Positions 32,876-55,089 of a DNA stretch of 55,089 nt are shown in pieces. This DNA is from Catajapyx aquilonaris (lineage: Eukaryota), in the NCBI GenBank assembly GCA_000934665.2, contig KZ538665.1:1-55089 (forward strand). Direction: 5' to 3'. The notes under the pieces are model-generated. The model saw nothing but the letters and a program-made list of their open reading frames with translations. It was not told the origin of the DNA and searched no databases. Every line of letters starts with the position of its first letter. Position 1 is the first letter of the stretch. Both the position numbers and the translations under genes were made by a program.

Positions 32876-35334
32876 GTCAGTATTGTGACGGAACGTCGCA
32901 TTCATTTCAACAAATTACGGCTTAGCTGGGAATTGGCTTTTTTAATTATTTTTTCTGGGATCCACTTGCATGATAGTTACACCTATTTTTCTGCAGGTTG
33001 GACGCTGGGATTCACCCGGTTTTTGGGAATGTGTTCAAGCTTTGCATGCGGATTATTTAGACACTGTGGCACATACCATATTTATTTGCATAATTACATT
33101 CACGCAGCTTTTATCGCTGAGCAGAAAAATTGCTTATTTCATCTGGTACAAAAAAATCTGGAGGAAACGTTCATGCAGCGATGATAATGTGCTGCAAGTA
33201 CTTTCGGCAAATGCATGTGTTTCACCAATTTTCAAAGACTGGGGAGAAATACGAGTACTTGTTTCGCTTGCTATGCCTTAATTTTCCATGAAAATGTACC
33301 GTTGCTATTAAAATGCATGATCTTGAATCTTGCAAAATGTGCTATTGAGGGATAATTTCCACCAAAATTTAACTTTCCAATTTAAAAAAAAAAAAGTGCA
33401 ATAAATATGGTACTTGAATTTAACATTACTCTTTTTCCAAAAAAGTTGGTGAACTCATATTGGGAGCTGATGTAAATGTCATTTAAAAATTTGCCGAGTC
33501 CAGTCAAACCCCCAGTATTCAACATGACCGTTTTCTCGAACTGTGGTGCAAATGTAAACCAGGTTCAAAGCCAGTTTAATCCCTGATTTGATTGTTGTTA
33601 GGCTGTTGTCAAGGGTTTGAATCGGCTTTGAACCGGGTTTACAGAGACAACGGCCCTTAGAGAATTTTAATCTGGAGATAGTTTCGATTTTTGACATGTT
33701 AAATTAAACTAGTGTGTGCAGCCATTGCGCTCTATATTTATTCTATGTCCATACAGCATGGCGACTACACACACGGGTTTAATTTAACAAGGCAAGGAAA
33801 TACTATTCGCAGCGGAATGAAAATCTGTACGCTGTGCGAGACTCCCCATTACGTGGACAGGCACTTCATTACACGATGGCATTATTACTGTTGTGCTGTA
33901 ATGTTCCCAATGTTGGTTCACCCTGTAAGCGACGATTCACGTACCTCTGAATTTGCGACGTGCTGGATGTGAACCCGAACAGATCAAGTCGTTTCGTTGG
34001 AACTGTCACGACCGGCAAAAGCTGTTCAGGATTTAAATTAATCCGACTCGTTGCAGTTTCAGCAGATTGCGTGAATTGGTCTTTATAGTGCATGCGTTGC
34101 TGGTCTGTACTTGTTTTTTCCTATTAGATGTTGTAATTGGTGGTTGAACTTTTTTCTTGGGAGTAGCGGTTTTCTTTGCCTGTTCGCCTTTCCAGGGACG
34201 AAAGTAGGATTTGGAAAAAGAATATAGATATTATGGAATGGGACAGCGCGCAAATTCCTGCAGCGGCAAATGCTTGCTTCTATTCATCCCTGCCCACCTG
34301 GGAAGATGGCTTTTGGGCTTCTAGTTATCCACCTACCTTTATTATTTTGTTATCACTCGATTCTTCCATCACCCTTCTTCACTGGCCTCTTCTGGTTGCA
34401 ATTTTCTTCTGGGTATTTTCCACTTTCTGGGAACTCACTTTTTTTCACGCTCACCTTATTTTTAATTTTTTTTTATTTTCTCTCTCATTTACATCACTTT
34501 TTATGATTTGGTTTGTCACATTACCTGATGTTGTGTTTCCTGCGGTTGCAGTGAGAATGGAGCCGGACTGCAAATTGCTGAAAAATGTCTCATTGCCTTT
34601 GACATCCATGGCATTGTAATAATAATAAAAAAAGCTTAAAAAGAAAGCGACAAAAATGTGTGGATGTAATCATTTCGAGAGGAATTTTTCAGCCGCATCA
34701 CAACTCGGAATGGAAATGATGCAAGAGGTAATGCGTTTAAAAATTAAGACGCCTAGAACTGCGCTTTAATAATGTTAATTACACACAAATAAATTGCCAT
34801 CAATTACGCATATCCGTGACCAAAATGACCTTCAGTCACATGCTCCAGTTTATTTTTAACTGCCTTTTTGTGCCATCGAAGTCGTTTAGTTATAAAAAAT
34901 TGCTGGCGTATGTCGTGTACATTTTTTGATTACGTTACAATTTTTTTCCGTTACACTTGTATCATTTATAGTCATTCAAAACATGATAACATTTCGTTGA
35001 AAATATATTGAATGTACGATTACTTACCATATAATGTTATTTATAAATAAATTAGCCGAGCGTTGATGGTGAAAGTCCATGTTGTTTACGCACATTTTTA
35101 TCGCATTTTTCAGCAAAAAAAACGTGTGTAAAACATTTTTGTAATGACCCAGACAAGTCTTGTTGACACTACTGATTACATATTAGGTCTATTTTATAGA
35201 TTGTTTTACGAAACCAGTTTATTTTAGAGATTTGAAGTATGAATATAGATAAATGCATCGGGTTTTTTTTAATAAATGGGAGATAAGTAGTAGTTAAAGA
35301 CAGGTTGTGCTGGTGGGTCACACTCGAGAGGAAG

Positions 35335-36534
35335 ATGTGCTCTGGTTCAAACAACAAGCCGAAGGTGCTCGTCACCTGGGCAAACCTGCCTGATGTAGCT
35401 CTCGACATTCTCAGGAAATGGTATGATATTTTCTCTGACTAATTAGACGTTAGCGCTAATCGCATGTTCCTAGCTGCGACGTCGAATGTTGGTCTAAAGA
35501 CAGTGTGATGCCTCGTGAATGCCTGCTGTCCCTGTCGAGGGGTAAGCATGCCCTGCTGGTTCGTGTGAGCGAGCGAGTGGACGCGGAGGTTCTGGACGAG
35601 GCTGGCCCGCAGCTGAAGGTCGTGGCGACTCTGTCTGTCGGCCATGATCATATTGATGTGGATGAAGCCAGCAGGCGGGGGATCAAAGTTGGACACACTC
35701 CGGGAGTCCTGACGCCAGCCACAGCCGAGCTGACTGTCGCTCTTTTACTAGCGACGACCCGACGATTGTTCGAGAGCCACCAGCAGCTGCTAAGGTGAGA
35801 GCCGCCTCAAATTCATATCGAGCTTTACAATTGACCTCAACAGGGCCGACTGGAAGTCGTGGGATCCAATGTGGATGGTCGGCTTGGGTCTGGAGGATTC
35901 CACTGTCGGCATTGTTGGCTTGGGACGCATCGGACAGACGGTGATCAAGATGCTGAAGCCGTTTAGCGTCGCCAAGTTCCTGTACCATGGACGGAGGGCT
36001 AAGCCAGAAGGCATGTTAACGCTTAATTCCAATGTGCAGGCCTAATTATGTTCCTTCAGGTTACGAGTTGGGAGCGGAGTTCGTATCGCTTCAGCGCCTG
36101 CTGAGCGAATCTGATTTCGTGATAGTAACCTGCCCGTTGACGCCCGATACTGAAGGAATGTTCAACAAGTCCGCATTTGTTCGGATGAAACGTAGCGCCG
36201 TTCTGGTGAACACAAGCAGGGGCGGTGTCGTGGATCAGGATGCACTAATCTGGGCGTTAACCACCGGGCAGATATGGGCCGCGGGACTAGACGTGATGAC
36301 CCCGGAGCCGCTACCGAAAGACCATCCGCTGACGAAAGCGCCAAACTGCAGTAAGCGTCACAAGCGGCCAGAGTAAACTCCAAAAGAGGTTAACTTGTTT
36401 TTAACTCCGCAGTACTAATCCCGCATCGGGGAAGCGGGACCATCCAATCCCGGCTGAAGATGTCCGTCCTGTCCGCCGAGAACGTAGTGTGCGGTCTGTT
36501 GAACAAGCCCATGCCGGCCCAGCTGCAACTGTAA
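35335..36534 (+). CDS. GRHPR: Glyoxylate reductase/hydroxypyruvate reductase
   Basis: Exons 35335-35420, 35474-35794, 35844-36010, 36060-36350, 36413-36534. AGPQLKVVATLSVGHDHID, TPGVLTPATAEL, GLGRIG, VNTSRGGVVDQ, AAGLDVMTPEPL, PHxGS. Confidence 0.92.
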
Positions 36535-37189
36535 CATAACACGCACTTACATATGTAATTGTAAGCAGTAGATGTAAATAGAATAAAAAAATAGTCCATT
36601 TTTGAAAGTGGCGCGTTTGATTCGAGTGTTGCCAACCCCCTGCACAGCCAGTGGTGCCAATTGCCGTTTCCCACCCTGCCATCTGGCGGCCACTTGGAGA
36701 ACTTGGCAGGCCGGAATATCGATCGGTCGGGTTCGTCTCGTTCTCTTTTTTTTATTATATCTCTGATCCTTGCTGGACCCTGGTCAGTTTCTGCCGGACC
36801 GCCGCTGACCGAGCAACGAAGGGTCCTCCTCAGTCCGTCTCTGGAGGGTTCGGGGGACACACGGGGGGGCTGGCTTGGCCCGTAGGCAGGCGGCTATAGT
36901 CGAAGTTTGGAACGTGGAGGAAAAAAGGAATTCCGAAAGGCATCTCTCTTTTTCTATTAATAGATTCACGCCCCCGACCGCCTACGCACAGGTCCCGCCG
37001 GACTAGAACATCATCTAAACAGGTACGTACAGTACACAGCCACTCAAAAGCTGTACTTAAATTTACATTACCGGTACTGGATGCTGGTACGTGAAGCACA
37101 GAACAGTTTGGAATGCCCACCAGTTGTACATTAGATAATTACATTTCATATCATCGAACTTGTTCTACAGTATTTATGTGTAATCTAAT

Positions 37190-37620
37190 TTTTGTTTAAT
37201 TAATTACTCATTAATTCCATTTAATTAATTTTGTTTGAGGTATGTAGCTAGTTAAATTTAATTCTTAATTCATTTTGTTCCAATTCATTAATTTTGGGTT
37301 AGTTATGTAGCCAATTAAATTAAATTATTAATATTTAATTAATTTTGGGTTAGTTATGTAGCTAATTAAATTTAATTATTAATATTTAATTAATTTTGGG
37401 TTATGTAGCTAATTAAATTTTATTCCCAATTAATTTTAATCCAATTAATTTTTACTTTAATTTGGTATGAGTTGTGTAACTTCTATTATTTCTTATGTCT
37501 GATTAATTTAATTTAATTTAATTATTAATGTATTTTGTTTCATTTGTTGTAATTAATTAAAAACTATTAATATAGTTTTGTTTATTAATTTCATTTAACT
37601 ATATTTAATTTTGCTTTATC
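37190..37620. repeat. AT-rich low-complexity degenerate repeat
   Basis: Repeated TTATGTAGCTAATTAAATTTAATT...TTTTGGGTTA units. Confidence 0.7.
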
Positions 37621-37870: not shown

Positions 37871-38517
37871 CCATCACATGTCAAGTCCGTTGTACGGTAT
37901 AAGGCGCCAAGTCCGGTTTGTTACAAGTCCGTTGTACGCTCAACTGCCGAGTGATGTACCCCTTGGTTTTTATTCGTTCATTTAATTTATTTACCCTGTA
38001 TAATGTCCAGCTTTCAATTACCCAACAGCGTGATAATTGTATAATTATTTTGCGGCATGCAACAGGGGGGAAAAACCGGACAATGTGCAGTTAGTGCGTG
38101 ACTAGTACTGTGCAATTATCACCTGTAATTATGGCTTTTGTCGGCGGTAGTGTTAGTACACACGTGCTTATGGCCTCGTAAGGGAGCCGCATTATTTGCT
38201 TGAAAGCAACGCAAAATTTCATTTTCCATTGTACTATTGAACTGTTCGTACTCTAAATGTGCATCTGATTTATAACTTGTAAAGTGCATCTAAAAGTAAC
38301 TAACCACATCCTGGGACATGGTGATAGCATTGTAACCCCCATTTTAACCACAATAAAGAGAGAGCTGCATGTTTGCTTCAGCCGCTTTCATCTAGAAATG
38401 GTAAACAAAAACAAGCGTACGGGTGATGTCAGGTGCAAACTAGATAGGTAAAACGTGATCATATTTTCCATTTCCATGCGTAATATGTTTCATATCATTG
38501 TAGTTTCCCAACAAAAG

Positions 38518-41500
38518 ATGCTGCGCTTAACGGCAAGCAGATTTGGCAAACGCCTGGTGGCAGGCCTGGGCAGTGAGCCGGCAGTGGTGTCCGTGCTTCC
38601 GTCCCAATCACATAACCGTGGCTATGCGGAGCACCAGATCCCGGAGCGACTCAGGTCAATCCCAGAGGAAGACGACCCGCCCTTCTTCAGCATGGTGGAG
38701 TACTTCTTCCACAAAGGCTGCCAGCTGGTGGAGGACTACCTGGTCGAGGAGCTGAAGGAGCCAAAGAAGACGGTAGAGGAGAAGCGGCACAAGGTGGCAG
38801 GAATCCTCCGCATCATGCAGCCATGCCATCATGTCCTCGAGCTCTGCTTTCCTGTCAAGAGGGACTCGGGAATATTCGAGATGATCACTGCCTACAGGGC
38901 GCAACACTCCCCGCATCGTACGCCTCTCAAGGGAGGTGAGTAGCATGGAGAATGAACTTGAAGAGTATTTAAATCGACTGATTATGATAATGACTGCAAT
39001 TATCAATTTGACCTTGAAATTTTCACATCGTTATGTAGCGATCGGCTTGGTCTGCAATTCTGTTAACGACTGGATTTACATACGATATTTATGCTCATGA
39101 AATTTGACTTATGCTGCAAGTAGGACAAAACCAATTCATCTGTTCCGTAGCACATAATTTGAGCTTAGCCGTGGTGACCTTCAGGGTTAGGTTTCTTAAG
39201 CCTGTTATTTTATTACACCCCCACCTCCCTCAGCTGTGTTTCCTCCGCAGCCTTGGCAGATGGCCCCAATTGCTGCATCTTTCCGGTTCATTCTGCTGCT
39301 AACATGTGTTTATGATCCGTGACCATCTTTTATTCCTCCACCTTCTTCCCAAGGCCATTTTACGCTCTTCATCCGTAATTATCGGATCCACCTGCGTGGT
39401 CGGGAATCCCTGATCAATTAAGGCAGAGAGTTACAATAATCGAAAGTACTGGCGGGTCCAATTGTCAATGAAGCGTTTTGCATGGTTCACTAGAACCTGA
39501 CTATGAATACAGCTGATTAGATGCATGGGCACTGGCCAAGGAGTCTCGATTGCACAATGTGTAGGAGCAAGCGGTAGTAATTTCATGGCAAAGATTACAT
39601 GACTCTCAGACTTGCTAATGTTACAGACGAACCTGTTATGACATCTGCATAATTTCAGCACGACTTTTCGCTACAGCGAGCTGTACTTTATAATTATGAA
39701 ACCATGTCTAGCTGGCTACACCATAGCGGACAGTTAGTGGTTGTAAAATTATCTCTTTAAGTGTTGACAGGAGTGCGTACGATAAATGTGACATGATATG
39801 CCCGCAATTGGTGGCTGAAATGAGCGAAAGCATTGTTAGGTTAGTTGTCGTATCTTGGGGCCTACTTTATTTGCATTGATACAAGAGTGCATAAAATATA
39901 TTCCTGTCATTTCTCATCCTGCCAGGTATTCGTTACTCTGAAGAGGTGAATATTGATGAAGTGAAGGCCCTCTCGGCGCTGATGACCTTCAAGTGCGCCT
40001 GTGTGGACGTTCCATTCGGAGGAGCCAAAGCCGGGGTCAAACTGAATCCAAAGCTGTATTCGGACAATGAGCTGGAAAAGATCACCAGGAGGTTCACCCT
40101 GGAGCTGGCCAAGAAGGGATTTATCGGTGAGTGTGGTGGAGACCAGCTGATGCGAAACTTGAAAGTAATGTTGGGAGTATCCAACACGTGTGTCACCTTC
40201 ACTCAACTTTGTTTCAGCCCCACTTTTTTTAAAGCAATAACGGCAAGTTGAGTACCCTGTTGTATTGAAATGGCCCTGAACGTGACCTTTGCAATTACAG
40301 CACTTGGCGATAGTCAAGAGAACCTCTTTATCAGCAGGTGTCGAGCTGTTCCTGATTCCTTTTTTTGTTTGCCGTGCTGCTTTAAAAGAACTTTATTTCC
40401 CCAGATTAGCGCAATGAAGCCTTTTTATTACAACTGGCCCTGGATGAAGATGAAACTTGTAAAATACGTAATGTTTACGTAATGCTCATATATGATGGAT
40501 ACGTTTTGATATAGAAAATATTTGTCAAATATAGGCTCCCAGTTTTCCACTCGCGAATATAATTAATCAGGAGTCCATGTTCAACAAGTACTTTCCATGT
40601 TGCAAAATAATTCCGTGAATGGATAATCGGGAGTCTAGTGCACCTTAGTCGTAATGTAGTGAATAATAAATATATAAACTTCATTTGCTGCATTTTTTCA
40701 CACTTCCAGGAGCAGTTTAGCAAGAATTGGCTGACGTTAATTATTTAATTTATTCTTTCAGGGCCAAGCGGATCGTTAACAATTTTTTCTTTCGCCAATA
40801 GAAATTAGCGGTCTTGTATTTACGTCCCAAATGATGGAGTAATTAACTGGTAGCTGCTTTTCCAAAGCCTTGCCATTTGGCAGGAATTTGACGTTTAATT
40901 AATTTACTTGGAACCTCAATTTCAGACAGCCCCCGAAGACCTGAATAAATAAATGCACTTCAGGATTGCCTGCGTGCGGTAATATTTGGTGCCGCCCAAT
41001 CAGCCTGACACAAATTGATAATCTGCTCGTGCCTGATAAGGATCCCTCCATATTTACACCCCGCATTTTACCTTATCTGCACAGGTTGTGACATAATCCG
41101 TCGCTGTGGCAACTATCTAACGATGAAGTGTGGTTTGCGCTCATTTTTATTCACCGCAGGAGCAGGTGATAATTAGGCCGTCAATCATGTTGATTCCCAC
41201 TCTTGACACGTTCCCACCTGAGATTTGTGTACTCAGTAAAAGCGCTAGTTGACTCATGAATATTCAAAAGCCAGATGACTTCAGGGAAGGCCGATTGTAG
41301 ACTGAAAGTTTAGCGGATCTACCAATCGCTGGATAATAATTGTTGACAAGCATTTTTAACACTTGCTAAATCCTTAGCTAACATGTGCTATGCACCACTT
41401 TTGATATGTCTGTTTCAGCCTTGTCCGAGTACGCTTGGTAATAATGGTTGGTCCTCTCACCTGATCGAGTACGACTTAATAATTAGGTTACGACACATTC

Positions 41501-44346
41501 CCCTTACCACAAACTAACTCTGTAATCGCAACAATAAGGTCCTGGTGTTGACGTACCTGCTCCAGACATGGGAACGAGCGAGCGCGAGATGTCCTGGATT
41601 GCAGATACATATGCTAAGACCATTGGTAAGGACAGGGTTTCAAAACAGAGCCTAAAATGTCGCACATCTTCCCTGTTCCCTTCACACCCTGTCCGTCCCC
41701 CCCACCCGTCGACCCTCCTTTAAAAACTAGGTCCTGGCGTGGACGTCCCTGCCCCTGACATGGGCAGTGGAGAAAGGGAGATGTCCTGGATCGCAGACAC
41801 GTACGCAAAGACCATTGGTAAAATCAGCACTTCTTTGCAACCTTGCCTGGAAATGCTGTGATACTGAACTTACAGTTTTCTTTCATGCACTCATATAACG
41901 GCAGCAGTGAAACTTGGGACAAACATCTATGCTGCAATCGCTACAATTGATGAATCGCTCATTTGAGAGCGTAATGAGTCGAATTACCAATAAGCATATT
42001 GTTACAGACCAAGTTTCACTGTATCGTGTACTCCTTTTCGTGGTGTTCGTGCTTGCTTTTTAATAGTTTTTCTGGTTTCTTTGATCTTGTATACGTTGAG
42101 TAAATTCTGCTAATGTGTGTGACATGATTCACTGATAATAATCGTATTTAAACCCAAGTGCTTGTGGTGTAAAATTAGATCTGAAAGGTTTCCTTGCCAA
42201 GTTAGGTTTCCAATGAAATGATCTTTGCAAGGCAACTTTTGCATGTGAATGTTTTTTTTTTTATTTGTGTTGTTTTGAGACTTGGGTGCACCACATGTAC
42301 AGGTTGTGTGAGTGTTGCTTCCCTCCTCCTCCTTCACCTATAAAAGGCCCTGGTGTAGACGTTGCTGCTCCGGATATGGGAACAGGCCCGAGAGAAATGG
42401 CTTGGATCGCCAACACTTATGCTAACACCATGGGTAAGACCTGCTCCTTTCGTGAAACCAAATCCTGCTCATTTGTCGTCTGTAAACTGGAAGTTGTACT
42501 TGTTGAGCACATGAATTTATTCCTTACACTTTCTACACTCTTCTTCATTTCTTCTCACTTTTCATTCTGCTAAATGGTAGTCGTTTTTAAATATTTCGGT
42601 CTAAACGCAACTTGTGCCGTACATGGCCGGAGGCAAGGTAAGCATCATCCCGGCCCACCTCTTGAACAAGAATCCTCCTTTCAACCCAAACCATAACTAC
42701 CCGTTTTGCAGTGGAGAGTTTTGATGCGATTAATATTAATATTAAGTGCATGGCAGCATTCAACTCACTTTGCATCGTGTCTAAATCACGTTTGAGTCAT
42801 GAACAAAAGCTGCTGAAATGGCTCGTAATAAGTAATTTTTCGCACTTCCATAAATATTTTCCATGCGACACTAAGTACGATAATAATATAAATATTCAGT
42901 GTTCAAGTTAAAGTACATGCCGACTTGCCTTTTGAAGCCTTCACAAAGAGCAGTTCCAGCAACATGCCATCATAATATTATCCATGTTACGAGGCCTATT
43001 GATAAGTTTTTATAAAGAACTGGGGTGGTTGCATGAAGACCAATTAACTTGTTAAAAGTCAGCAATTTAAGTTTAGGAAAGTGCTCATGCAACTGCTCCT
43101 GAGATTATCTCGAACCCTTTGTTTAAACATTGCATCTCCTACGCAGGCCATCTCGACATCAATGCTCATGCCTGTGTGACGGGGAAGCCCATAAACCAGG
43201 GTGGAATCCATGGGAGGATCAGCGCCACAGGCCGTGGCGTCTTCCATGGGATCGAAAACTTCATCATGGAAGCTGGGTACATGGGCATGATCGGGACGAC
43301 ACCTGGCTGGGGAGGAAAGACATTCATCGTGCAGGGATTCGGCAATGTTGGTCTTCACACGATGCGATACTTAACTAGGTAAAGTCCGCATTAGCAGATC
43401 AGTGTCGTATATATTTCTGCGACTAACACCTTTACCTCATGAACAGGGCTGGAGCAACATGCATTGGCGTGAAGGAGGTGGACGGGGCTATCTTCAACCT
43501 AGAGGGAATTGACCCGAAAGAGTTGGAGGAGTACAAGATTGAAAACGGGACAATTGTTGGGTACCCGGGAGCCAAGGCGTACGAGGGAGAGGACCTGCTG
43601 TACGAGAAGTGTGACATTCTGGTGCCTGCTGCCATCGAGAAGGTCATCACAAAGCAGAATGCACACAAAATACAGGCCAAGGTCAGGAGAAGTGACACTA
43701 ACAATACTGTGGGTTAGATGTATTAATCTCTAATGTCGACAGATTGTGGCGGAGGCTGCAAACGGCCCAACGACCCCTGCGGCAGATAAGATTCTCCTGG
43801 ACCGCAACGTTCTTGTCATACCTGACCTGTTCGTGAATGCCGGAGGAGTGACTGTTTCGTACTTTGAGTGGCTCAAGAACCTCAACCACGTATCGTACGG
43901 CAGGCTCACATTCAAGTACGAGAGGGAATCCAACTACCACCTTCTCGGTTAGTGAGTCGATTACAGCTCAGCAGGTTCGCTTTGACTTAACTTTTGTTTC
44001 ACACGCAGAGTCCGTGCAGGAGTCGCTTGAAAGGCGCTTTGGTCGTGTCGGCGGCAGAATTCCCATAACCCCGTCCGAGTCTTTCCAGAAGAAGATTTCT
44101 GGCGCGTCCGAGAAGGACATTGTCCATTCAGGGTTGGACTACACCATGGAGAGATCTGCCAGGGTTGGTCATGCTTTGATGTGTTCATACCGAGTGATTC
44201 ATACTTAACGAGAACGTTATTTCCAGGCCATAATGAGAACTGCCATGAAGTACAACCTTGGTCTGGATCTTCGGATGGCCGCATACGTCAATTCAATCGA
44301 GAAGATATTCAACACTTACAAGGAGGCCGGACTGACCTTCTCGTAG
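38518..44346 (+). CDS. Gdh: Mitochondrial glutamate dehydrogenase
   Basis: Exons 38518-38935, 39926-40126, [41539-41625 | 41731-41817 | 42347-42433], 43147-43378, 43447-43681, 43743-43947, 44009-44163, 44227-44346. Transit-like N-terminus, YRAQHS..KGGIRY, GGAKAG, VTGKP, GFGNVG, EAANGP, NAGGV, antenna [10 protein letters not shown], ends AGLTFS. Confidence 0.97.
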
Positions 44347-44997: not shown

Positions 44998-45123
44998 CCC
45001 GATTGCACCAACGAAATTACTGATCCGATAGCTCCTAACGAATCGTTAGAACACCCTTTTAACATGTGCTAATGATCTGTTAGGAGCTATCGAGTTGGTA
45101 ATTTCGTTGGTGCAAATCAGGCA
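44998..45123. mobile_element. MITE (family of 31731-31853)
   Basis: GCCCGATTGCACCAACGAAATTAC / GTAATTTCGTTGGTGCAAATC inverted ends. Confidence 0.6.
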
Positions 45124-45690
45124 TCAATCTTTTTGTCTGCAATAGTACCGAATTGTCTCCCATCTTTTTTGCCTGAAATAAGACTGAATCATATCAAATC
45201 TTTTTGTCTGTGATAGTACTGCATCTTCTGAATCTGTTTGTCCACAAAAGCACTGACTCGTCTCCATCTTTTTGTCTGCAATAGTACTGAATCGTATCGC
45301 TCGTTTTGCTTGCAATAGTACTGAATCGTCTCAATCTTTTTGTCTGCAATAGTACTGAATCGTCTCAATCTTTTTGTCTGTGATAGTACTGAATCGTCTC
45401 GATCTTTTTGTCTGTGATAGTACTGAATCGTCTCAATCTTTTTGTCTGTGATAGTACTGAATCGTCTTAATCTTTTTGTATGTGATAGTACTGAATCGTC
45501 TCAATCTTTTTGTATGTGATAGTACTGAATCGTCTCAATCTTTTTGTCTGCAATAGTACTGAATCGTATCGCTCGTTTTGCTTGGAATAGTACTGAATCG
45601 TATCAATCTTTTTGCCTGTGATAGTACTGAATCGTCTCAATCTTTTTGTCTGTGATAGTACTGAACCGTCTCAATCTTTTTGTCTGCAAT
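45124..45690. repeat. 34-bp minisatellite (TCAATCTTTTTGTCTGTGATAGTACTGAATCGTC), about 16 units
   Basis: Exact 34-bp periodicity (TAGTACT at 45316, 45350, 45384, 45418...), no unique spacers. Confidence 0.9.
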
Positions 45691-47519
45691 TTAGTACATT
45701 TATTAATTAACATTTTTATAAATGTACGTAAACATATACTTCTACAACACCCAGTGCATTGAGATTGCCTAGCCAGGCCAGGGATGTGATTCTCCTTCAT
45801 GGGACCTGTTAGTAGTTGTGTTCAGAGGGGCAAAGTAGAGGGCTAATTACATCAATCTGCATATTAGGTGGAGGGGAAATTTAGACACAGGATCATAAAT
45901 AAAGGAGGAGGGATTCACACTGCTGGCAACTGGCAAGGCAAGTGGTCCCCCCACTCCCCAAAGTTGGAACTAATACTTGGAGAGGGGGGAGCTTTTGAAG
46001 AAAATGGCAACATTGTGTTGATAGAGGGACCAGGCTTATTTGGGGTCCAGGTGCACCAGTCTGTATAGTGCTGTATAGGTTGCTGGTGGTGGGAGGCAAC
46101 TCACAGGCTCAGGCAATAGTACACAATGTCCATCCACTCTCCTCTCCGGTGACAGCTGCTAAATTAAGTCTCATCCTTACTTTCTGTGGAAGTGCCAACT
46201 ATAAGGTAGGTACTCTCTCTGTCCATACACTCCGAGATCGCACTCGAATTTTGTGCTTTTGCAATAACCACAATTAGAGGGGGTTGCAGCAATAAGAAGC
46301 TGTTTGGTCAGGCACAAAGAAAGGCATGCCAATTGGGGGATCAATCCACCTGATCAAATCTTATTGATGGTCATTATATAGGTTCATGTAGATGTTAATT
46401 AATTGTGCTGGAGGTACGGTTCTTTTGAGGTGGTTCCTGCTCATTCCTTCCCTCAGCTTCGCCCCGTTATATCTGAGCTCAAATTTTAGGGGGGCCAAAA
46501 CCTGCCAGACGGAGACGATCTTGACCCACTTATTGGGGTCAAAGGATATCCGATAACAGGAGCTAAGGAGGGGAGCCACCCTCATCACAGCCTTATTCCT
46601 TTTCCTTGTTTACTATGAGGATAACTCATGTATAGTCATGTGCCACAGTGTGTGCCATGCTAAATTCAGCCTAAAATTAACTTTTTAAAATCATGATGGT
46701 AATGCATTTTTCCAACACACTTGAATGCATCTCCTTTTTATTTAATAAGTAACTCATTATCCTCACCAGCAGACTCCTTCGTAAGAGAATTTGTCTGTTT
46801 CTGAGCCTATATGTGGATACAGCACGGTCTGTCAAGTTTTAAAAAAAAGACGAGGGTCTGCTGTTTATCAACCTTTGGGCAACCTTTGCCTTGAAAACCT
46901 TATTTCCCCCTCTGGCTCTCTGAGGGTCATCAGCAGTCCCTTTTCCTGCCCTCAAGGGAGATCACATATCCCCCAAAAAGCTGCACCACCTGGCCTCGCA
47001 GTGTTTCCAGCTTGTTCACACAGCTAGGTTCCTATATTCTGACAACTGTGTCTTGCCGGAAACTTGTAGCTTCACAATCTGGTCCGAAGGTAGTTATTAA
47101 GGGGGCCTATCGAATTTTCCGGGGGGTGATAGCACTTTTTGGGGGGTGATAGTTAGTTGCGACATCGTTTTAAATGACTTGCAGGATTGATTTTGCGATA
47201 ATAATCTTATTGGAAGTTGTTCCTCATACTGTACAGTACTAATGTCATATTATATGAAAAAGTCTTTGTCAACTTTTATAAGTAGCCTACTGGTACTATT
47301 GGGTCCAAATGCTTTTGGCCACTTTATCCTGGTCTTGAAGGAACCCTTCGCGCACATACCCCACGTTAAGGAGGTGTGTGTGTGAGTGAAGGGTTGCTTC
47401 AAGGATAGGATAAAGTGGGCAAAAGTATTTGAACCCGATAGTACATCGGCTGACTGACAAGTGAGTATAGGGAAAAATATGGGCGTGAAAGTCTAGTAAT
47501 GCAGGAGCCTCATTCGCAC

Positions 47520-47533
47520 NNNNNNNNNNNNNN
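47520..47533. other. Assembly gap (N run)
   Basis: Run of Ns. Confidence 0.98.
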
Positions 47534-48335
47534 NCCCCCCCAAAAAAAAAAGAAAGAAAGAAAGAAAGAAAATTGGAAAGGTTTTGTGGGTGGCCCAGTA
47601 GTGGCACAAAGGGCCTGAAGGTACCTTGATTGGCTAGCCAGAGGGAAAGTGGGCAAGACCCATGCACACCTTTGCTGTTTTTTCTGGGGATGAGTGAAGT
47701 CCACAACAGACTATTCAGTTCGTAGTACCCGCAGTGAGGGTCTTTGAAAGCTGGTGACCTTTAAAGATGCCCAGTGGTTGATGACCATCATGCAGGCTGT
47801 TCAGATCTTCTGAAATCATGGCCACTCGAAATCCTGCCAGTACTATGTCGCCACTCTACGCTGCACACCATTCAGCAGCACCAGAATTATAGATAGGTCT
47901 ACTAACTTTAAAATAAAAAACAATTCTGGAATGGTCATGCCATTGGCAGCAAGCAATTTCGGCCAGCCACATGTGATGAGAAGGGTTTTTTTTTTAAAAA
48001 AACATAAAACATAAAACATAATTCACTTTTTAAATCATTGACATTGCTAGTTATTATCACCCAGTTGGATTATTGAACATATGATGCATGTGATATGATG
48101 TGCTGCAGAATTTGTGTTTACTTTCCAATTATTCAATTGACTGAACTCTTATAACAAAAGGGTAGTTGCTGAACTTTCTACCAGACTTTTACCAGGAACA
48201 ATCCGGTACCTCATGTTTCAGGAGACAGTTTCTGTTACATCCAACCCCACATTAATATTGTGGTTTAATTCATTTTCAGGAATTCTCACACTTTGCCTGC
48301 CATTGAGATTGCAGCCTATAATTGGCAATAAGAAG

Positions 48336-51300
48336 ATGGAGAGTGAAAGTGAAGAGATGAGCATCGAAGACCAGGTGAGGTGTAGATTGGAAGGTGATTG
48401 TCGTGTGAAAACATGACTGGAAATGATTAACGATGCTGTTTCCATTCATTTTTTTGGGGTGACATACGAGGACACATTAGAAGTTTTCTTACGTGGGTGT
48501 AAATGGTGTAAGTTAATGAATTGGGAATGGCTGTTGTACAGTGTGAGCAGCCAGGGTGGCAAAGGTCTCTCGCAATGTTACTTCAAATATGCCATATTGC
48601 AATAAACTAACTTCGTAAACTTTATAAAATTGAGCAAAGTATGTTGTGATTGACACCAGCTGCATGAATTAATAATAATGAACAAAACTTCTGATTATGT
48701 CCGATTTTTAGTTGAATCCCGATGTTAAATTGAGCTTTTTTTTCTAATTTGTTTGCATACAACCGGCCCTAAGTGGCACTAGAAGCACATCCAGTCTAAT
48801 GTATGTGTGTGAAATTATTGGAACATTAAATGAGAATTAAGTGTTAATGAGACCTCAAATCAGTTTTTAATGCATTTTTTTTTTTTTTTACAGATGAAGG
48901 AATGCTTCATCGAGCTCTACAGGCTCACAGAAGAGGAGCTGAAAAGGCACAAGGTGACTGTCTGAACTTAATGATATTTTAGTGTTGTTCATTGGGTCGC
49001 TGTGTTTGGAACCTGCCACTTCTTACATAGAAGACCGCAAGTCTTCATAGCATTAGTGTTATGTGTCTTTTGATGCTCATGCTTCTTCCCTCAACAACAA
49101 CATCCAGGCAACACCGGAGGATAAGGACAGGATTACGCGGCTCAGGGAAAACCTCAAACCTGAAGTGCCTAAGTGCAGCTGCTTCCCTGGCAGAAAGTGT
49201 AAGGCTTTCAATATCTTACTTGTAGTTGGAACTGGTAGTAATAATTGTGTCGCAAGTAATATTTTGGGTGATAGAGTAATATTTCATAACCGTATAGTGT
49301 AAAACCATTGTGTCCGTGCATATGTTTTTCCACATTGACATTTTTCTTGTTTACCTAGGTCCGCCTGAGAAGGGACCGTACTACACGCAGCTGGGAGCAG
49401 CCCCTTCCCTCGCTGCACTGGAGAAGATGATGCAGGAAAGATCAGGACTCTCCCGGAGAGCCCTCAGATTTATACCACTCACCTACACAGAGAGGAAGAC
49501 CAACAATGAATGCCCCAAGGCACGATGGGTGAGTACTCATCGTGGAGAGCAGATAATGTTTCAACTTAATGTGCATTGCTGCATCAGTATTTGTGCAGTG
49601 TTTTACTATCCAGGAATTTTAGGTTCACAAGGTCCTCATTTTAAGGTTAACTAACTTTTAGCAGAATATACTATTTTTTTAAAGCCCATAAAATAATTTT
49701 AGCTGAATAAGCAAAGCGTAAAGAAGCGTAAAGGTTAAAGTGTTTCAGCAGGTCATCATTGTATAACTGATTGGGTTTAAAGGTGCAGTTACATGTGAGC
49801 TATTTGACAAGCCAAATCTTCGCCGAGGCTGAAATTAACAATCGATTTTTGCCTCAAATAATATTGGTTACTTGGAGTACTCAGCCTCGGCGAAGATTTC
49901 ACTCCGGTTTGCTCGTCAAATCGCTCTCATGTAAATGCACCTTAATCAAGGTTATGGTTTAACTGTCATGTTTTTACAATACGCACAATTAGCCATTATT
50001 TTTCGCATATATTTGCCAAGAGTATTTTTTCCAACAAATCCTACTCCAAGTAAAATAATGTTTTCTTTCAGGAATTGTCTTGTATTCTCTAGAGGCAGCC
50101 TTTGAATGACATGTCATTACATTTCTTCTACTTTGGCCAGGTCATTAGGCGGAGCAGTCCCAAGGAGAAGATCCTCTGCCTCGTGAAGCATCGTCCAGGC
50201 CACAGTTGCTCCACAGCATGGATGATTGTCTCAATCGTGTATTGGGATGGACTCCCTGGACCGGTTGCAGACGATCTGTACCAAATGTTGCGGCACAAGC
50301 TGGGAACATATGGTCTTCCCATCGAGAGACGATGCGAGCGGAATGACCAGAGAAACTGTACCTGTCAGGGAACAGACTCTACGACAGGTTAGAATCACGA
50401 AAAAGATGGAGTGTATTTTGTGTGTACATTATAGGGGACATTGTTGAAGCTAAGAATGAATACGAGAGTTATTTACATGGCAGCTACAGTAAGAACCAAG
50501 TACATTATAAAATATATCATGCCAAGTAATACTGAAAACTGCTTGCTTCCCTAACAACTTTGAATTTTTATTGCCAGCTGGTGCATCATTCGTATTTGGC
50601 TGCTCTTGGAATACGTACATGATTGGTTGCAAGTTCGCACGCAGCCCTTCCCCTCGAAAGTTCTGCTTGTCAGACACTGCACAGGAGAAAGAGTTGGAGA
50701 AAAAGCTGCAGGCCATCACGACAAGAATCTCCCCGCTCTTCAAGCGCCTGGCTCCAGAGGCCTACAACAATCACGTGGCCCTGGAGATGGAAGGCCAAGA
50801 ATGCCGCCTCGGAACCAAAGCTGGCAGACCATTCTCTGGGATCACTGTGTGCATGGACTTCTCCGCCCATGCACACAAGGACCAGAGAGACCTCAACAAC
50901 GGCTCCACTTTGGTGATTACAATTTTTGTTAACCCACGCTTATTATGCAGTGACAATAATTTAACTATTCATATGTAAAGGTACTGACCTTGACGAGACA
51001 CAGAGGAAAGTCGGCACCTAAGGACGAGCAGCTGCATGTCCTCCCACTTTACTCGATAGAGGACAATGAAAGCGGGTAAGTGCAAAAGCAGATTGAAATA
51101 TTTGCAGCAGCAAAACATCTTCATATTCCTTGCATTAAATTGCAGTGTTATTAGCCGAGTTACTAGCTGCAGTTGTTTACTCACAGGAGCTCGTCCCAGA
51201 TGCAGAGTCAACAGACTCCAGGTCTGGCGTGCCCCTCAAATAGGAGAGGAAAGAAGCGGCAGCGTACAGGTGAGCGTACAGCTGCGTTGAAAGGAACCTC

Positions 51301-52548
51301 AGACCCTGAGACTGGTGGTGTGGGCATCGCTCTCGGGCATGGCAGTGTTATGCTCGAGTGCGCCAAGCACGAGATGCATGCCACCACCAGTCTCAGAGTC
51401 CCTGACCGCACAAATCCGCATCGAATCAGCCTCGTGTTCTACCAGCACAAGTTCCTCAACTCCAGGCATCATGGGTGGACAGAATGGAAGCACAAGCTGA
51501 AGCTCCTACGCCAGAGAAAGGTTAAACTCCACTTGGAAGGCAAGGAGGTGCTGGAAGACGATAAGTGGATGCGGCTACTCCACAGGATACTCAAGGTATA
51601 TGCTTATTTGTTGACACCACCTGCTCTACATTGCATGCCAAATGTACGGAATTAGACAAACCTGTCTGATCTGTGTTACTAAATTGGTGCTCCCCCGTCT
51701 TATATATTCTGTTGCGCCAAGGAAATCTCCAGTTAAGTTACGTTGTGTATTCCGAAAACAAATTCATAATAAAGAGAATGATTTCTCATTTGCATTCAAT
51801 CAACCAGCTCCAAGCAGCACTGTTCACTAATATCCATAGCCTGCCGTAGCTAATGATAGGAGCATGAATTGTTTAGAATAAATTGTTGAGTGAACTTCTG
51901 GTGTTGTAATTTCAGGAAGAGATTCCACTCGTCAAGATGCATAAGCTTTGCATATGCAAAATATGCAGTGCTCCATTCCTGACCAAGAAGGAATTGATGG
52001 AGCATGAGGTGAAACACCATCGTTCCAAGAAGAACAAGGTAATACGCCGTGCCTGCCGCACTCTTTTTAAATCAGGTTCCTGTATCTCATGAGCTTTTTA
52101 TGCCTTTTAGGTGGAAGCTGGTAAAAAGAATGGGCAAAATGAAAGCTCAAAGTTGATGAAGCACTTGGGAAGGAGGAAACCTAGTCAACGTCGGGTCACC
52201 AGAGTGAAACAACCTTGTCGCCTTGGTTGTTGCAATGACTTCAGTGATAAGGTTGAAGCTAGACGAGATCCAGAAGTGAAGCCTGCTAGTGGCAATGCTC
52301 ATAATAAGTTTGGTCACTTGCGTAAGTTGAAGGGGCAGAGGTATGAGCACATAAGCAAGAAGCCTCGTAGCTCCAAAGTTTCCAATAGAAAGTTTGCTCA
52401 GTTAGATCTGTTGAAAAGCCACATGAGAAGTCACAATAAAGGTCGCAAAGGTGTGGAGACTTTTGCCTGTCCAGTTTGCGAAAAGAGGTTTGTTCAATCT
52501 CGTGGTTTGAAGTGTCACATGACGAGAAAACACCCAGGATGGAAGTAA
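48336..52548 (+). CDS. Compact TET-family Fe(II)/2-oxoglutarate dioxygenase with C-terminal C2H2 zinc fingers (about 668 aa)
   Basis: Exons 48336-48374, 48894-48953, 49108-49198, 49359-49528, 50141-50387, 50578-50912, 50981-51075, 51187-51595, 51916-52038, 52111-52548 give 2007 nt in one frame. TET motifs PKCSC, GPYYTQLGAA, CPKARWVIRR, GHSC, RRC..N..CTCQG, GCKFARS, CRLG..GRPFSGIT, HAHKD, DEQLHVLPLY, GGVGIALGHGS, ECAKHEMHATT, RISLVFYQHK. Fingers CKIC..F..L..HEVKH and CPVCEKRF..L..HMTRKH. Confidence 0.9.
49781..49942. mobile_element. PIF/Harbinger-type MITE in TET intron 4
   Basis: TIRs AGGTGCAGTTACATGTGAGC / GCTCTCATGTAAATGCACCT with TAA on both flanks (49778-80, 49943-45). Confidence 0.7.
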
Positions 52549-53241
52549 TTTTGTTGTCCTGTGGTAAAGGACTGGCCACCGTTTCAGTCCAGAATTCAAA
52601 GACCTAGGACAAAAGTGCAATGCTAAACATAATCGGAGTACAAAATTTTTGTAATGCGCATGTGCTCAAAATTGCTCAAGAATATTCCTAGATAATTGGA
52701 GCACAACTACAACTGCCATTTACTCTCAAGCCTCAAGCCTCATGCATCTTACATACATATAGAGACAATTGAAAGGACATATACCCATTTTCAATCATAA
52801 TTGGGGTCAGAAACAGTTCATAGGTAATTAAATAACTGATTGTACATAATTATCACATCAAATAAGGACTAACAGGGACACATAAACAAGTATTCATTAT
52901 TCTTTAATTATATTTTGTAATACCGGTATGAAATAGATTTAAAATAAATGTATTCTGAAGTTGAAAGGGAAGCTGTTATCAAGGGAACAAGGAAATGCAT
53001 GTCTTCAATGAAGTCTTTCAATGAAGAGCCTAAAGAGTAGCATGTTGCAAGATTGTTGCAAGATTGTTGCAAGATGTTGCAATGTCTTTCAATGAAGAGC
53101 CTAAAGAGTAGCATGTTTGAACTCTGAAGTGTTGGAGAGCCTATGTGTTTTTGCTGACTCTGTTATTTTCAAATATTTCAAAATTATCAGATTAATACAG
53201 TTTCTGCGAGTACCTAACCAGGCTGCAGAATTTATTAAATA

Positions 53242-53782
53242 GAGGGTGATTCTCTCGAATGGAAACCCAAACATTCCTCAATAACTTTTTAACTATGGTA
53301 TGGTTCCCGATGAAAATTGACATGTACCTACCTTGGATCATGCCAAACAAGGTCTGACTGAAGAATATACCAAAAGTGGTCCGTTCCAGCATGCAAGAAT
53401 TTTTAAATGCAAGTCTGCATATTCCGTTGCCTTGAGATGCCTGCCAGACAAGTTGGCGGGCGGGCGGGGATGAGTGCAATCCCCCGCAGGGAATAGGCAG
53501 GAGTCTTCGGCAATATGCAGACTCGCATTAAAAAATTCTTGGATGCTGGAGGGGACCATTTCCAGCATATTTTCAAGGCAGACCTTGTTTGGCATCATAC
53601 AAGGTAAGTACCCAGGTAGCACAAAAAGTTGGGCCAATATTGGACGAATCTTGGCCCAATATCTTAAATATTGGCCCAACTTTTTGTGCTACCTGGGTAC
53701 ATGTCAATTTTCATCCAGAACCATACAACAATTAAAAAGTTGTTGAGGAATGTTTGGGTTCCCATTCGGGAGAATCACCCTG
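53242..53782. mobile_element. Tc1/mariner-type MITE with nested MITE at 53611-53697
   Basis: Long arms beginning GAGGGTGATTCTC / GAGAATCACCCTG with TA flanks; inner CCCAGGTAGCACAAAAAG...CTTTTTGTGCTACCTGGG with duplicated TA. Confidence 0.75.
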
Positions 53783-55089
53783 TACCATTGTGTGACATGC
53801 ATGAGGATTGTGTGGCAAGGTATAGTTTGATAGTGTTTCTGATATGCCATGATGTAGTGTGTTTTTATTTCTTTATTTTTGAGGATATTGTGATATTTAT
53901 ACGGGTACTGTCAATAGATTTCCATGATTGTTAGTTTGTGATATCCCCAGCACTCTTGCAGATTGTGTACACTTAGCCATAGAGAGTGCGGTCAATGTGA
54001 AATAGAGCTGTTGGTGTATGTATAACCTGCTGTTGTCTTATTTTGGGGGGGAGTATAGCAGCTTGACACTGTCAAAGGCCAGCCCGGATGATGCAAGTAA
54101 GCCCACAAGGAGCGGAAAACTACAACCATTGCAATAAGTGGGGCATCAGGTAGTCTGACGCATCATTTGTGGTCCTCTTTTGAGAGGAATCGCGTGTCGC
54201 AGATGAGAGAGCCGCTACTTGGAAGTAGCAGTGTCAAGTCGCAAGAGCGACTGGTGGAGAGTAGCGCTTAGTCCCGTCCCTTTCAGCAAGTGGTTGCGTC
54301 TTTTCCCCGTCAGATGTCCGCACCTGTCACGCGTGCACGGGTGACGGTGGCGCCACATCTCCCCCCTTCGAATGGCGGACGGCATGATTACTACTTGATC
54401 GTCCTTTGTCTTTGTGGAACAAACTGGAAGCGTTTGAAACAAGTCTGATTGTTGCCTGGCCATTGTTGGAGGAGGGTGAGTTTGTGTTGGGGTTAGGAGG
54501 GCTCCTGAGGGAAGTACCATACTTTCCGTGGGTGCCCCGTGGGTTGGTACGATCACTTTGATTCCGCGATCTGGCGAGCAAGGTGCACCTATAAACTATG
54601 AACTAATCACCTCCCCCATTTACCGCCCACGAGTCCACGATTGTCCACGAGTTTTCCCTTCACCCTGTATACAGTAATACAGGGTGAAGGGAAAACTCGT
54701 GGACAATCGCCAGGTAAACTTATAGTACTCTCAAAACTAATATAAGGATGTGCAATTAGTTTTTGGTTCCATTGCGTAGTTACAGCATTCCGCGCCTTTA
54801 ACATGTAGACGGTAAAATACGAGGTAAAAGTGGGTGTCGTACCCGGACTCTTACTCTGAAGGGATCTGATCACCCATTGCACATGGACGATGTGGTAAGG
54901 ACCCAAGGCCGGATTGTTCGGAGGCCCTCGAGCTGGCTTTTGCTTCGTTGAAGCTGGCGGAACGGATGTGACGTCACGAAACTTGGATGGCACTGTACAC
55001 ATTAACCCTGGAACCGTGCCGTGCCTACGAGTATTACCGCAACCGTGCCGTGGGGTCTTTTCGGACCCCACGATATTTGATTTTTTTAT

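Follow-up and report, generated by a model that had tools for sequence, protein, structure and literature searches.

A compact TET dioxygenase gene of Catajapyx aquilonaris with a probable C-terminal extension derived from a decayed C2H2 zinc-finger array

We identified, in a 55,089-nt stretch of Catajapyx aquilonaris DNA (hereafter the window), a gene for a compact TET dioxygenase with a very short insert and no detectable CXXC domain, whose exon 8 is probably cis-spliced to two exons left from a decayed C2H2 zinc-finger array and whose C-terminal tail may therewith tether the enzyme. We put the probability of this reading as a whole at roughly 0.55. With its 668 aa (501 aa if the tail is left out), the protein would rank with the smallest metazoan-type TETs whose Cys-rich and double-stranded beta-helix (DSBH) core is complete, a size that recommends it for structural studies and as a small epigenome-editing effector.

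Gene structure and reading frame

Ten exons with AG acceptors and GT donors lie between 48336 and 52548 on the + strand and join into a single frame of 2007 nt (668 codons and a TAA). A first-pass annotation of this DNA had described ten GT-AG exons forming one frame of about 668 aa, and each exon was found where it had been placed. Exon 1 (48336–48374, aa 1–13) is defined by a putative start ATG at 48336, an open frame and the donor CAG/GTGAGG; exon 2 (48894–48953, aa 14–33), which itself opens with an ATG, is defined by its splice sites and frame. Neither exon has homology support, exon 2 giving no Pfam or TET match. The frame stays open upstream of exon 1 as far as 48141, an AG occurs at 48278–79, and the true 5′ end of the TET gene is therefore uncertain; the ATG at 48894 could equally be the start instead of that at 48336.

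Exon 3 (49108–49198, aa 34–64), in which the Cys-rich region begins (Cys57 and Cys59), was aligned with scallop TET, and the 49000–49199 bins that contain it drew tblastn matches from TET proteins. The Cys-rich domain continues through exon 4 (49359–49528, aa 64–120) and exon 5 (50141–50387, aa 121–203), which matched human TET2 structures in phmmer at 7.5e-9 (chain positions 17–72) and 1.9e-21 (chain positions 73–153), respectively; exon 5 retains the conserved Cys and His residues and contains Arg183, the counterpart of R1261 of human TET2. Exon 6 (50578–50912, aa 203–314) encodes the DNA-contact loop and the first half of the DSBH (Tet_JBP, 6.9e-28; TET2, 2.4e-39), with His302 at 50874–76, Asp304 at 50880–82 and, at the position of human Asn1387, Asp307 at 50889–91. 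Exon 7 (50981–51075, aa 315–346), recognized by its splice sites, tblastn and alignment, places His333 at the position of human H1416.

The insert, the second half of the DSBH and a helical tail are encoded by exon 8 (51187–51595, aa 346–482), which ends at the donor AAG/GTATAT and matched both Tet_JBP (1.1e-9) and the TET2 structures (7.1e-22, chain positions 381–449). The insert is basic, extends to aa 383 and contains the motif RRGKKRQR (51242–51265); it is followed by His410 (51377–79), Arg425 (51422–24), Ser427, Tyr431 and His433. The acceptor of exon 8 is a tandem NAGNAG, placing the start of the exon at 51187 or 51190. Read-through of the exon 8 donor (51596–51655) would add 19 codons and end at a TAG (51653–55), giving a TET of 501 aa with an AATAAA 113 nt past its stop. 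The AATAAA signals in this region lie at 51768 and 51877, after the read-through stop, and at 52943, after exon 10.

Catalytic core

Exons 6 and 8 scored 97.4 and 38.2 bits with Tet_JBP (PF12851), both above its cut-off of 34.9 bits, and exons 4, 5, 6 and 8, each searched on its own, were collinear with the human TET2 structures over chain positions 17–449 of 462 (phmmer). On these matches, membership of the TET family is far beyond chance. Exons 3–8 together hold the complete TET core and would encode a full catalytic unit, that is, a Cys-rich zinc-binding domain wrapped round the DSBH. The alignments to TET2 thus confirmed what the first-pass annotation had claimed, a full Cys-rich and DSBH core with intact iron ligands and 2-oxoglutarate arginine, and its estimate of about 50 aa ahead of the core agrees with the 56 aa that we counted before the first Cys of the Cys-rich region.

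The HxD...H triad (His302, Asp304 and His410) aligned without gaps to the HRD and HATT motifs of TET2. The arginines of both invariant 2-oxoglutarate columns are also kept, Arg425 within RISLVFYQH and Arg183 within RRC; the role of these two residues follows the literature, with PMC11804724 as the source for the pocket. Equivalents of R1261, R1896, S1898, Y1902, H1904 and H1416 are all retained. Compared with human TET2 (PDB codes: 4NM6, 5D9Y, 5DEU and 7NE3), the core is about 54–57% identical and follows one order, Cys-rich region first, then DNA-contact loops, then an insert-split DSBH, with the HxD...H triad, the two 2-oxoglutarate arginines and the Ser, Tyr and His of the base pocket all kept. 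The product is accordingly best pictured as a compact Fe(II)/2-oxoglutarate dioxygenase that would flip a 5-methylpyrimidine, most likely 5-methylcytosine, out of DNA and hydroxylate its methyl group; its substrate and its expression are both inferred.

Conservation of the core is not complete. Of the 18 Cys and His columns shared by 95% or more of the comparators, 17 are kept, the exception being C298S, and of the 118 columns that are invariant in 53 distinct comparators, 97 are kept and 21 are altered. Among the altered ones are the Asn that contacts the base, the Cys of C298S and four residues of the loop GCSW-x5-GC. Set against human TET2, the differences are Asn1387 to Asp, Cys1378 to Ser and four changes in the S1286–N1296 loop, whose human numbering is counted from the alignment together with residue numbers of the human protein. 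Because 21 of the 118 invariant core positions are changed, the activity or the substrate may differ from those of canonical TETs. A pseudogene as an account of the whole locus was rejected, given ten intact exons and the retention of 82% of the invariant columns; the gene is intact and under selection.

An aspartate at the base-contact position

The Asn that contacts 5mC in human TET2 (N1387) is invariant in 53 of 53 comparator TETs and is replaced here by Asp307. The Asn/Tyr/His triad of base recognition is consequently incomplete, with Tyr431 and His433 kept. Neither the Cys-rich domain nor the insert of metazoan TETs is known from NgTET1 of Naegleria and the trypanosome enzymes JBP1/2; unlike these minimal enzymes, the protein described here is a metazoan-type TET in all respects but Asp307. 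According to PMC11804724, an Asp also occupies the N1387 position in NgTET1 (D234) and JBP1, NgTET1 can oxidise T as well as 5mC, the former more weakly, and mutation work on human TET2 ties the residue at N1387 to 5mC-versus-thymine specificity. Asp307 offers a natural test of an Asn-to-Asp change at a base-contact position.

Short insert, lack of a CXXC domain and of the conserved C-terminal segment

The insert in the DSBH lies at the expected place and measures 38 aa, compared with 158–618 aa in 57 comparators, in line with the low-complexity insert of only about 40 aa that had been estimated earlier. Human TET2 differs from this protein in having an insert of hundreds of amino acids, more than 1100 aa ahead of the core (about 56 here) and a conserved C-terminal segment, which is absent here. 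A profile built from 74 distinct comparator tails matched over only the first 31–32 of its 100 positions, with the spliced and the read-through protein alike. A suspicion by eye that the canonical TET C-terminal motif is kept at the end of the read-through form or of exon 8 was abandoned, the profile search giving no support.

An N-terminal CXXC domain is found in TET1/3 and in some invertebrate TETs and is not universal. Apart from a 15-N gap at 47520–47534, no CXXC pattern, Pfam match or tblastn match was found anywhere in the window, and, with the same exception, no coding exon was detectable between the end of the glutamate dehydrogenase (GLUD) gene at 44346 and the TET gene. No other TET-like pieces were found elsewhere in the window. 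The absence of a CXXC, as claimed in the first pass, therefore holds for the window, upstream CXXC exons having been sought there; it is, however, not distinctive, as PMC11292947 and PMC12460157 describe CXXC-less TETs in annelids, other spiralians and chaetognaths. The spiralian and the chaetognath cases alike have a TET core without N-terminal CXXC and form part of simplified methylation toolkits in fast-evolving lineages (PMC11292947 and PMC12460157); the chaetognath Paraspadella has three simplified TET copies, all without CXXC (PMC12460157). They differ in being described as Tet_JBP with or without CXXC only, the accessible text of both papers making no mention of a C2H2 tail.

Zinc-finger exons downstream of the core

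Exon 9 (51916–52038, aa 483–523) was recognized by an intact C2H2 finger and its splice sites, and has an internal ATG at 51937. Exon 10 (52111–52548, aa 524–668), which ends with the TAA at 52546–48, encodes a basic tail with two degenerate fingers and one intact finger (zf-C2H2 and zf-H2C2_2). Searching with a regular expression, we found intact C2H2 patterns on the + strand of the window only at 51949–52020 and 52468–52533; a single chance-like match lies in intron 1, on the opposite strand. The + strand of the window thus has no further C2H2 motif, and no zinc-finger cluster is near the gene. The exon 9 finger runs from Cys496 to His516 (51955–52017) and the terminal finger spans aa 643–664 (52468–52533). 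Both fit the complete C2H2 consensus down to the residues of the hydrophobic core, with Pfam E-values of 4.4e-5 (zf-C2H2_4, exon 9) and 1.2e-4, and their single-finger scores fall just short of the gathering cut-offs (24.3 versus 27, and 22.8 versus 25.2).

The first-pass annotation had counted two intact C2H2 fingers and one degenerate finger. The intact pair and a degenerate finger stand; the count does not, since a second degenerate finger occupies aa 583–603 (52288–52350), with its Cys pair changed to Ser/Ala and its first His to Gln. In the other (aa 611–631, 52372–52434), both Cys are changed to Ser. Exon 10 aligned in register with tandem C2H2 arrays over 3–4 units, which marks it as what is left of an array that had three or more fingers in tandem, two of which are now dead. 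Only the last of the three array units in exon 10 keeps its zinc ligands, the exon 9 finger is about 125 aa away, and there is no series of working fingers joined by TGEKP-like linkers such as extended sequence reading requires.

Exons 9 and 10 each start directly after an in-frame stop near the acceptor, and a further such stop interrupts the intron of 72 nt that divides them. Because stops adjoin both acceptors and interrupt this intron, the two are, by frame analysis, real exons. Moreover, the exon 10 frame is open for 145 codons although five of twelve zinc-ligand positions are replaced, which argues that it is translated. Together, exons 9 and 10 would give a tail of 186 aa with a pI of 10.4; their GC3 is 0.48, compared with 0.64 in exons 1–8. 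AlphaFold2 prediction of exon 10 alone from a single sequence was uninformative (mean pLDDT 45).

Is exon 8 spliced to exon 9?

The exon 8 donor scores 5 of 7, within the range of 4–6 of the other donors of the gene, three of eight of which are lower, and the other GT sites towards the 3′ end of this exon score lower. Its phase-0 compatibility with exon 9 is weak evidence, because four of the six GT sites in this region are in phase 0. On balance the exon 8 to exon 9 splice appears to be the better-favoured outcome. If so, exon 8 would be cis-spliced in phase 0 to two exons derived from a C2H2 array that lost two fingers, and the conserved TET C-terminus would have been swapped for a strongly basic tail of 186 aa in which two intact fingers stand far apart. 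Such a tail may confer nuclear localisation and tethering to nucleic acid or chromatin, perhaps with limited sequence preference, and would not serve as a programmable multi-finger reader.

Another possible, though distinctly less likely, arrangement is that of two genes. The TET would end by read-through at 51653–55, and exons 9 and 10 would belong to a separate zinc-finger gene of 179 aa starting at the ATG at 51937, driven by its own promoter or matured from a polycistron through trans-splicing of a spliced leader to the acceptor at 51915. The layout is compatible with a trans-spliced or operonic downstream gene: this ATG lies 21 nt past the acceptor, a TATA-like site (51701) and the first two AATAAA signals fall between the read-through stop and exon 9, GC3 is unequal between the two parts, and the TET2 crystal construct indicates that the catalytic fold needs nothing past the part that exon 8 encodes. 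Both trans-splicing and operons are known from some fast-evolving invertebrates with simplified TETs such as chaetognaths (PMC12460157). However, the read-through stop and exon 9 are a mere 260 nt apart, while the remaining intergenic distances in the window are 2–4 kb, and this stretch would make a poor independent promoter and leader because it is short and contains three upstream ATGs. A 179-aa protein with its first finger at residue 7 and two dead fingers would also be an odd stand-alone gene, and exon 8 does possess a usable phase-0 donor. A further alternative, which we consider improbable, holds that exons 9 and 10 are functionless, untranslated leftovers of a zinc-finger gene downstream of a TET that ends in exon 8. 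The loss of zinc ligands in two of three array fingers, the lack of a tail orthologue among the searches, the lower GC3 and the sub-threshold single-finger Pfam scores would suit such a relic, but with five of twelve ligands replaced, stops and frameshifts would be expected in it, and yet both exons are open and phase-compatible across a stop-bearing intron, and the exon 9 and terminal fingers fit the full consensus with its hydrophobic core.

Under the favoured splice, the gene would be a natural counterpart of artificial zinc-finger-TET fusions and would show an evolutionary swap of TET targeting modules, C2H2 fingers being gained and the CXXC lost. Should the splice prove unreal, the gene would come down to a short and divergent invertebrate TET lacking CXXC, a type with precedents. 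The case for the tail as a DNA-targeting module of its own, making the protein a sequence-directed demethylase, is weak, because the two intact fingers are about 125 aa apart and the two others lack zinc ligands. We also think it unlikely that the gene encodes a natural, minimal, self-tethered TET of 668 aa with a DNA-binding zinc-finger tail in place of CXXC and the canonical C-terminus, whose Asp pocket has reverted to the NgTET1/JBP state and whose DNA-intercalating loop is altered, acting as a locus- or motif-directed oxidase with a substrate range (5mC versus thymine or other) unlike that of canonical animal TETs. In engineered zinc-finger-TET fusions, and where C2H2 transcription factors recruit TETs, the fingers bring the TET catalytic domain to DNA, and these systems use intact multi-finger arrays or separate partner proteins. 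The present protein differs from them, with two isolated intact and two dead fingers attached C-terminally if the splice is real.

Database and literature searches

That C2H2-fused animal TETs were unfamiliar, as remarked in the first pass, is borne out by the comparators: none of the 120 TET relatives listed as best matches of the most conserved exon has a C-terminal C2H2 architecture. One of them, P0036, has C2H2-like motifs near its N-terminus. Word-indexed searching of exon 10 against longer proteins returned no orthologue at E<=1e-3, which is weak evidence, and an exhaustive search of representatives returned only generic multi-finger proteins matching the last 80–110 residues, with a TET core in none of the 150 listed. 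For exon 6, metagenome contigs gave 592 pattern matches, none of which was confirmed, and the ESM Atlas gave only generic fungal or viral Tet_JBP clusters, which carry no architecture information. A C2H2-fused animal TET is not described in the literature covered, which is mainly the running text of openly available papers.

Orthology and genomic setting

There is a nearly even chance, whichever splice reading is correct, that this TET is the ordinary and perhaps only orthologue of its lineage, shortened and fast-evolving like the rest of the proteome, and not the extra lineage-specific paralogue proposed in the first pass. The branch of the neighbouring sirtuin is 1.19 against a median of 0.31, similar to the TET branch of 1.24. 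The window has the gene neighbourhood sirtuin, tetraspanin, GLUD and TET; in human, SIRT1 and TET1 are near neighbours on chromosome 10, with GLUD1 and tetraspanin genes on the same chromosome, and the neighbourhood may therefore be the ancestral TET locus. One tet gene is usual in animals and duplications are infrequent (PMC8330077), and TETs without CXXC are common among invertebrates (PMC11292947). Multi-copy simplified TETs do exist, however, as in the chaetognath with three (PMC12460157), and the 120 best matches of the most conserved exon include no arthropod TET, even though crustaceans are the group with which the sirtuin clusters. Missing arthropod TETs among the best matches can also stem from long branches. 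The sirtuin tree itself suggests that the host is crustacean-related. Finally, the CpG observed/expected ratio is 0.45–0.55 over the TET locus and about 1.0 at 25–37 kb, a pattern that fits a genome with mosaic cytosine methylation.

A compact TET gene with a complete catalytic core

By translation, the open segments of the three forward frames in the region 47800-53200 could be joined via ten canonical AG...GT exons (48336-52548, + strand) into one reading frame of 2007 nt and 668 codons, ending in a TAA stop at 52546-48, with introns of 68-612 nt. Exons 1-8 (48336-51595) encode the TET part; exons 9 (51916-52038) and 10 (52111-52548) encode a tail, aa 483-668. The junctions 51595/51916 and 52038/52111, which the first-pass annotation of a finger-tailed TET had named, match these exon coordinates. 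At exon 8 the acceptor is a tandem one (51187 or 51190), and the choice would add or drop one Ser.

In a Pfam search, exon 6 (6.9e-28) as well as exon 8 (1.1e-9) scored above the curated cut-off for Tet_JBP. Exons 4, 5, 6, and 8 each matched crystal structures of the human TET2 catalytic domain (4NM6, 5D9Y, and others related to them), collinearly at positions 17-72, 73-153, 156-268, and 381-449 of the 462-residue chain, and the 120 listed TET proteins matched the window solely within about 49000-51650. After 63 of the 120 listed matches to the most conserved exon were dropped because they did not cover both core blocks, the remaining 57 comprised 53 distinct full-core sequences, including vertebrate TET1/2/3 and those of scallops, oyster, and sea urchin. 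Compared with these, the model has retained 97 of the 118 columns that are invariant and 17 of the 18 in which Cys or His is conserved, with the iron ligands (His302, Asp304, His410), the 2-oxoglutarate arginines (Arg183, Arg425), and Ser427, Tyr431, His433, and His333 all present. This is a genuine TET core, with no part missing.

Three lengths describe how compact the model is. The insert between the DSBH halves is a basic stretch of 38 aa with an RRGKKRQR motif (158-618 aa in the 57 comparators), 54 aa precede the aligned core block, which begins at aa 55 (23-1385 aa, the shortest being partial models), and 228 aa follow the core (54-142 aa). A profile built from 74 distinct C-termini of comparators matched just ~31 residues beyond FYQH, in the spliced and read-through versions alike, so the model has lost the canonical C-terminal segment of TETs. 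A six-frame pattern scan of the window found no CXXC motif, and none of the 20 forward ORFs of ≥40 aa that lie after the glutamate dehydrogenase gene (ending at 44346) and before exon 1 has a Pfam domain. CXXC absence is common among invertebrate TETs (PMC11292947). The interval from 44346 to exon 1 is rich in repeats, among them a 34-bp minisatellite (45124-45686; 16.5 copies), and includes a 15-N assembly gap (47520-47534), ~800 bp 5' of exon 1, which might conceal sequence that matters for the gene's 5' end; a single N lies at 31532. A good acceptor-like site (ttcattttcag/G, 48279/48280), 56 nt 5' of the first ATG with the frame open (region 48270-48336), might reflect splicing within the 5' UTR, trans-splicing, or a further upstream coding exon.

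Inverted repeats were also observed within the gene. The exon 8 coding sequence contains a strong RNA hairpin (51292-51410, +; codons DPETGG to HATTSLRV) with 19-nt arms (51302-51320 and 51382-51400) that are 95% complementary, the lone A:C mismatch being the third base of an Arg codon. Its minimum free energy was -60.9 kcal/mol vs -41.7 +/- 3.8 for shuffles (z -5.1; 0/200 as good). The structure may be regulatory or of the editing type, or may have arisen by chance from Gly-Gly and Thr-Thr codons. An imperfect inverted repeat surrounds the HxD codons in exon 6 (50833-50890, +; 24 nt, 79% complementary, 10 nt apart), and a perfect inverted repeat in intron 4 (49814-49899; 19-nt arms, 48 nt apart) looks like a small MITE-type insertion.

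Divergence and the base pocket

The closest database relatives of the most conserved exon were 55-62% identical (best 120 of 326 matches). In a quick maximum-likelihood tree the model fell among the sequences from invertebrates, and its terminal branch measured 1.24 (median 0.03; sea urchin 0.65); control invertebrates retained 118 of 118-122 invariant columns, in contrast to 97 of 118 in the model. Since the neighbouring sirtuin is likewise long-branched (1.19 vs median 0.31), part of this divergence is probably a lineage effect. The sirtuin fell within a pancrustacean group (SH-aLRT 97), adjoining an ostracod and cladocerans (81-93), which makes the organism probably a relative of crustaceans that is evolving fast, although this placement comes from one gene with a long branch.

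In an ungapped alignment, Asp307 occupies the position of human TET2 Asn1387, which is Asn in 53/53 comparators. In a study of this residue, N1387 hydrogen-bonds N4 of 5mC; its substitution lowers 5mC oxidation and in several cases raises thymine oxidation, and N1387D lowers the former without raising the latter (PMC11804724). The same study places Asp at the equivalent position in NgTET1 (D234) and JBP1, and reports that NgTET1 oxidises 5mC and, more weakly, thymine (PMC11804724). Asp307 is thus compatible with activity, yet it sets the pocket of the model apart from those of other animal TETs. Elsewhere in the core, the invariant Cys two residues ahead of the first His in the AHAH stretch is replaced (C298S). 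The GCSW-x5-GC loop, which in the TET2-DNA structure reportedly inserts into DNA at the flipped base, is altered at four positions (S208V, S214N, M215T, N218I).

For this model, substrate, tethering role, and expression are all inferred. DNA would be held by zinc-stabilised Cys-rich elements and two loops, as in other TETs, and the target base would be flipped into a pocket of Tyr431, His433, and Asp307, where Fe(II) on His302/Asp304/His410, with 2-oxoglutarate on Arg425/Arg183, would hydroxylate the 5-methyl group. CpG is depleted at the locus (o/e 0.45-0.55) but not around the sirtuin (~1.0); over larger stretches, o/e is 0.45-0.62 in the TET region (45001-55000) vs ~0.9-1.1 in the sirtuin/GRHPR region (25001-37500), a contrast that suggests mosaic cytosine (germline) methylation, so that substrate may be available for TET.

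The finger exons and a putative basic tail

Across the forward strand of the window there are just two intact C2H2 patterns, one within exon 9 (aa 496-516) and the other where exon 10 ends (aa 643-664); Pfam detects them at E 4.4e-5 and 1.2e-4, with scores a few bits under single-domain cut-offs. An exhaustive search matched exon 10 to 5623 proteins, of which those listed (150) were generic multi-finger proteins. Residue-level alignment to three of these 150 placed aa 583-664 in register with a tandem finger array: HISKKP lies opposite the HTGEKP linker, Ser611 and Ser614 opposite a Cys pair, Ser583 and Ala586 opposite the preceding Cys pair, and Gln599 opposite a His. Hence exon 10 is what remains of a tandem array with three or more fingers, the last alone intact. 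The degenerate finger proposed earlier is thereby borne out (Ser611/Ser614), and a second, at Ser583/Ala586 and Gln599, is added to it. The tail is strongly basic (pI 10.4, 26% Lys+Arg).

The Pfam domain zf-C2H2 was present in 0/120 listed TETs. P0036 alone among these proteins carries C2H2-like motifs, near its N-terminus, and a TET core was absent from all 150 listed finger proteins. Neither the listed database relatives nor the literature searched, mostly outside subscription journals, contained a C2H2-tailed TET. Exon 10 protein searches (best 150 of 5623 listed in the exhaustive search) revealed no tail orthologue, nor did metagenomic contigs yield a related locus.

Relationship of the tail to the TET protein

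On the gene structure, we favour splicing of exon 8 to exons 9-10, which would make the tail part of the TET protein, with a probability of about 0.55. Exons 9 and 10 each begin right after an in-frame stop within the acceptor region, both in phase 0, and the intron between them holds a stop. The exon 8 donor (AAG/GTATAT) is the top-scoring GT site near the 3' end of the exon and scores equal to or above most other donors of the gene. However, four of the six GT sites near the exon 8 end are in phase 0, so phase agreement is weak as evidence. Reading through the donor would add 19 codons and a TAG (51653-55), giving a 501-aa TET, and is followed by AATAAA at 51768 and 51877. Speaking for the fusion, only 260 nt, containing three ATGs, separate this stop from exon 9.

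That exons 9-10 form a small finger gene of their own we consider possible but distinctly less probable. An ATG lies inside exon 9 (51937), and GC3 is lower in exons 9-10 (0.48) than in exons 1-8 (0.64). Where an organism has operons resolved by spliced-leader trans-splicing, an acceptor immediately 5' of an ATG, shortly after a poly(A) signal, marks a separate downstream gene; chaetognaths have both features together with three simplified TET copies (PMC12460157). That exons 9-10 are a dead relic seems improbable: the exon 10 frame is still open despite divergence that cost five zinc ligands, which also speaks for the fusion. If attached to the TET, the tail would most plausibly serve in nuclear import and in binding nucleic acids, either generally or at short motifs; two isolated fingers are not enough to read a long sequence.

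Genomic neighbourhood

The TET gene lies downstream of a tetraspanin exon (23561-24184, +), a sirtuin-1-like gene (26916-28680, -) that includes an open segment of 490 aa, a GRHPR-like 2-hydroxyacid dehydrogenase gene (35460-36376, +), and the glutamate dehydrogenase gene (38452-44346, +). Human SIRT1 and TET1 are close neighbours on chromosome 10, with GLUD1 and tetraspanin genes on the same chromosome. The linkage may therefore be conserved and this could be the ancestral TET locus, which favours an orthologue over a paralogue. As a rule, animals have a single tet gene, which is seldom duplicated (PMC8330077), and multi-copy simplified TETs are known in a chaetognath (PMC12460157).

Elsewhere in the window, the minus strand carries two tRNA-Ser(GCT) genes (11237-11308 and 21138-21209), separated by ~10 kb. 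Near-identical 115-aa open frames occur in inverted orientation ~7 kb apart (1090-1437, +, and 8595-8942, -); the 1090-1437 copy, the one scanned, had no Pfam match, and the pair are probably copies of a repeat element.
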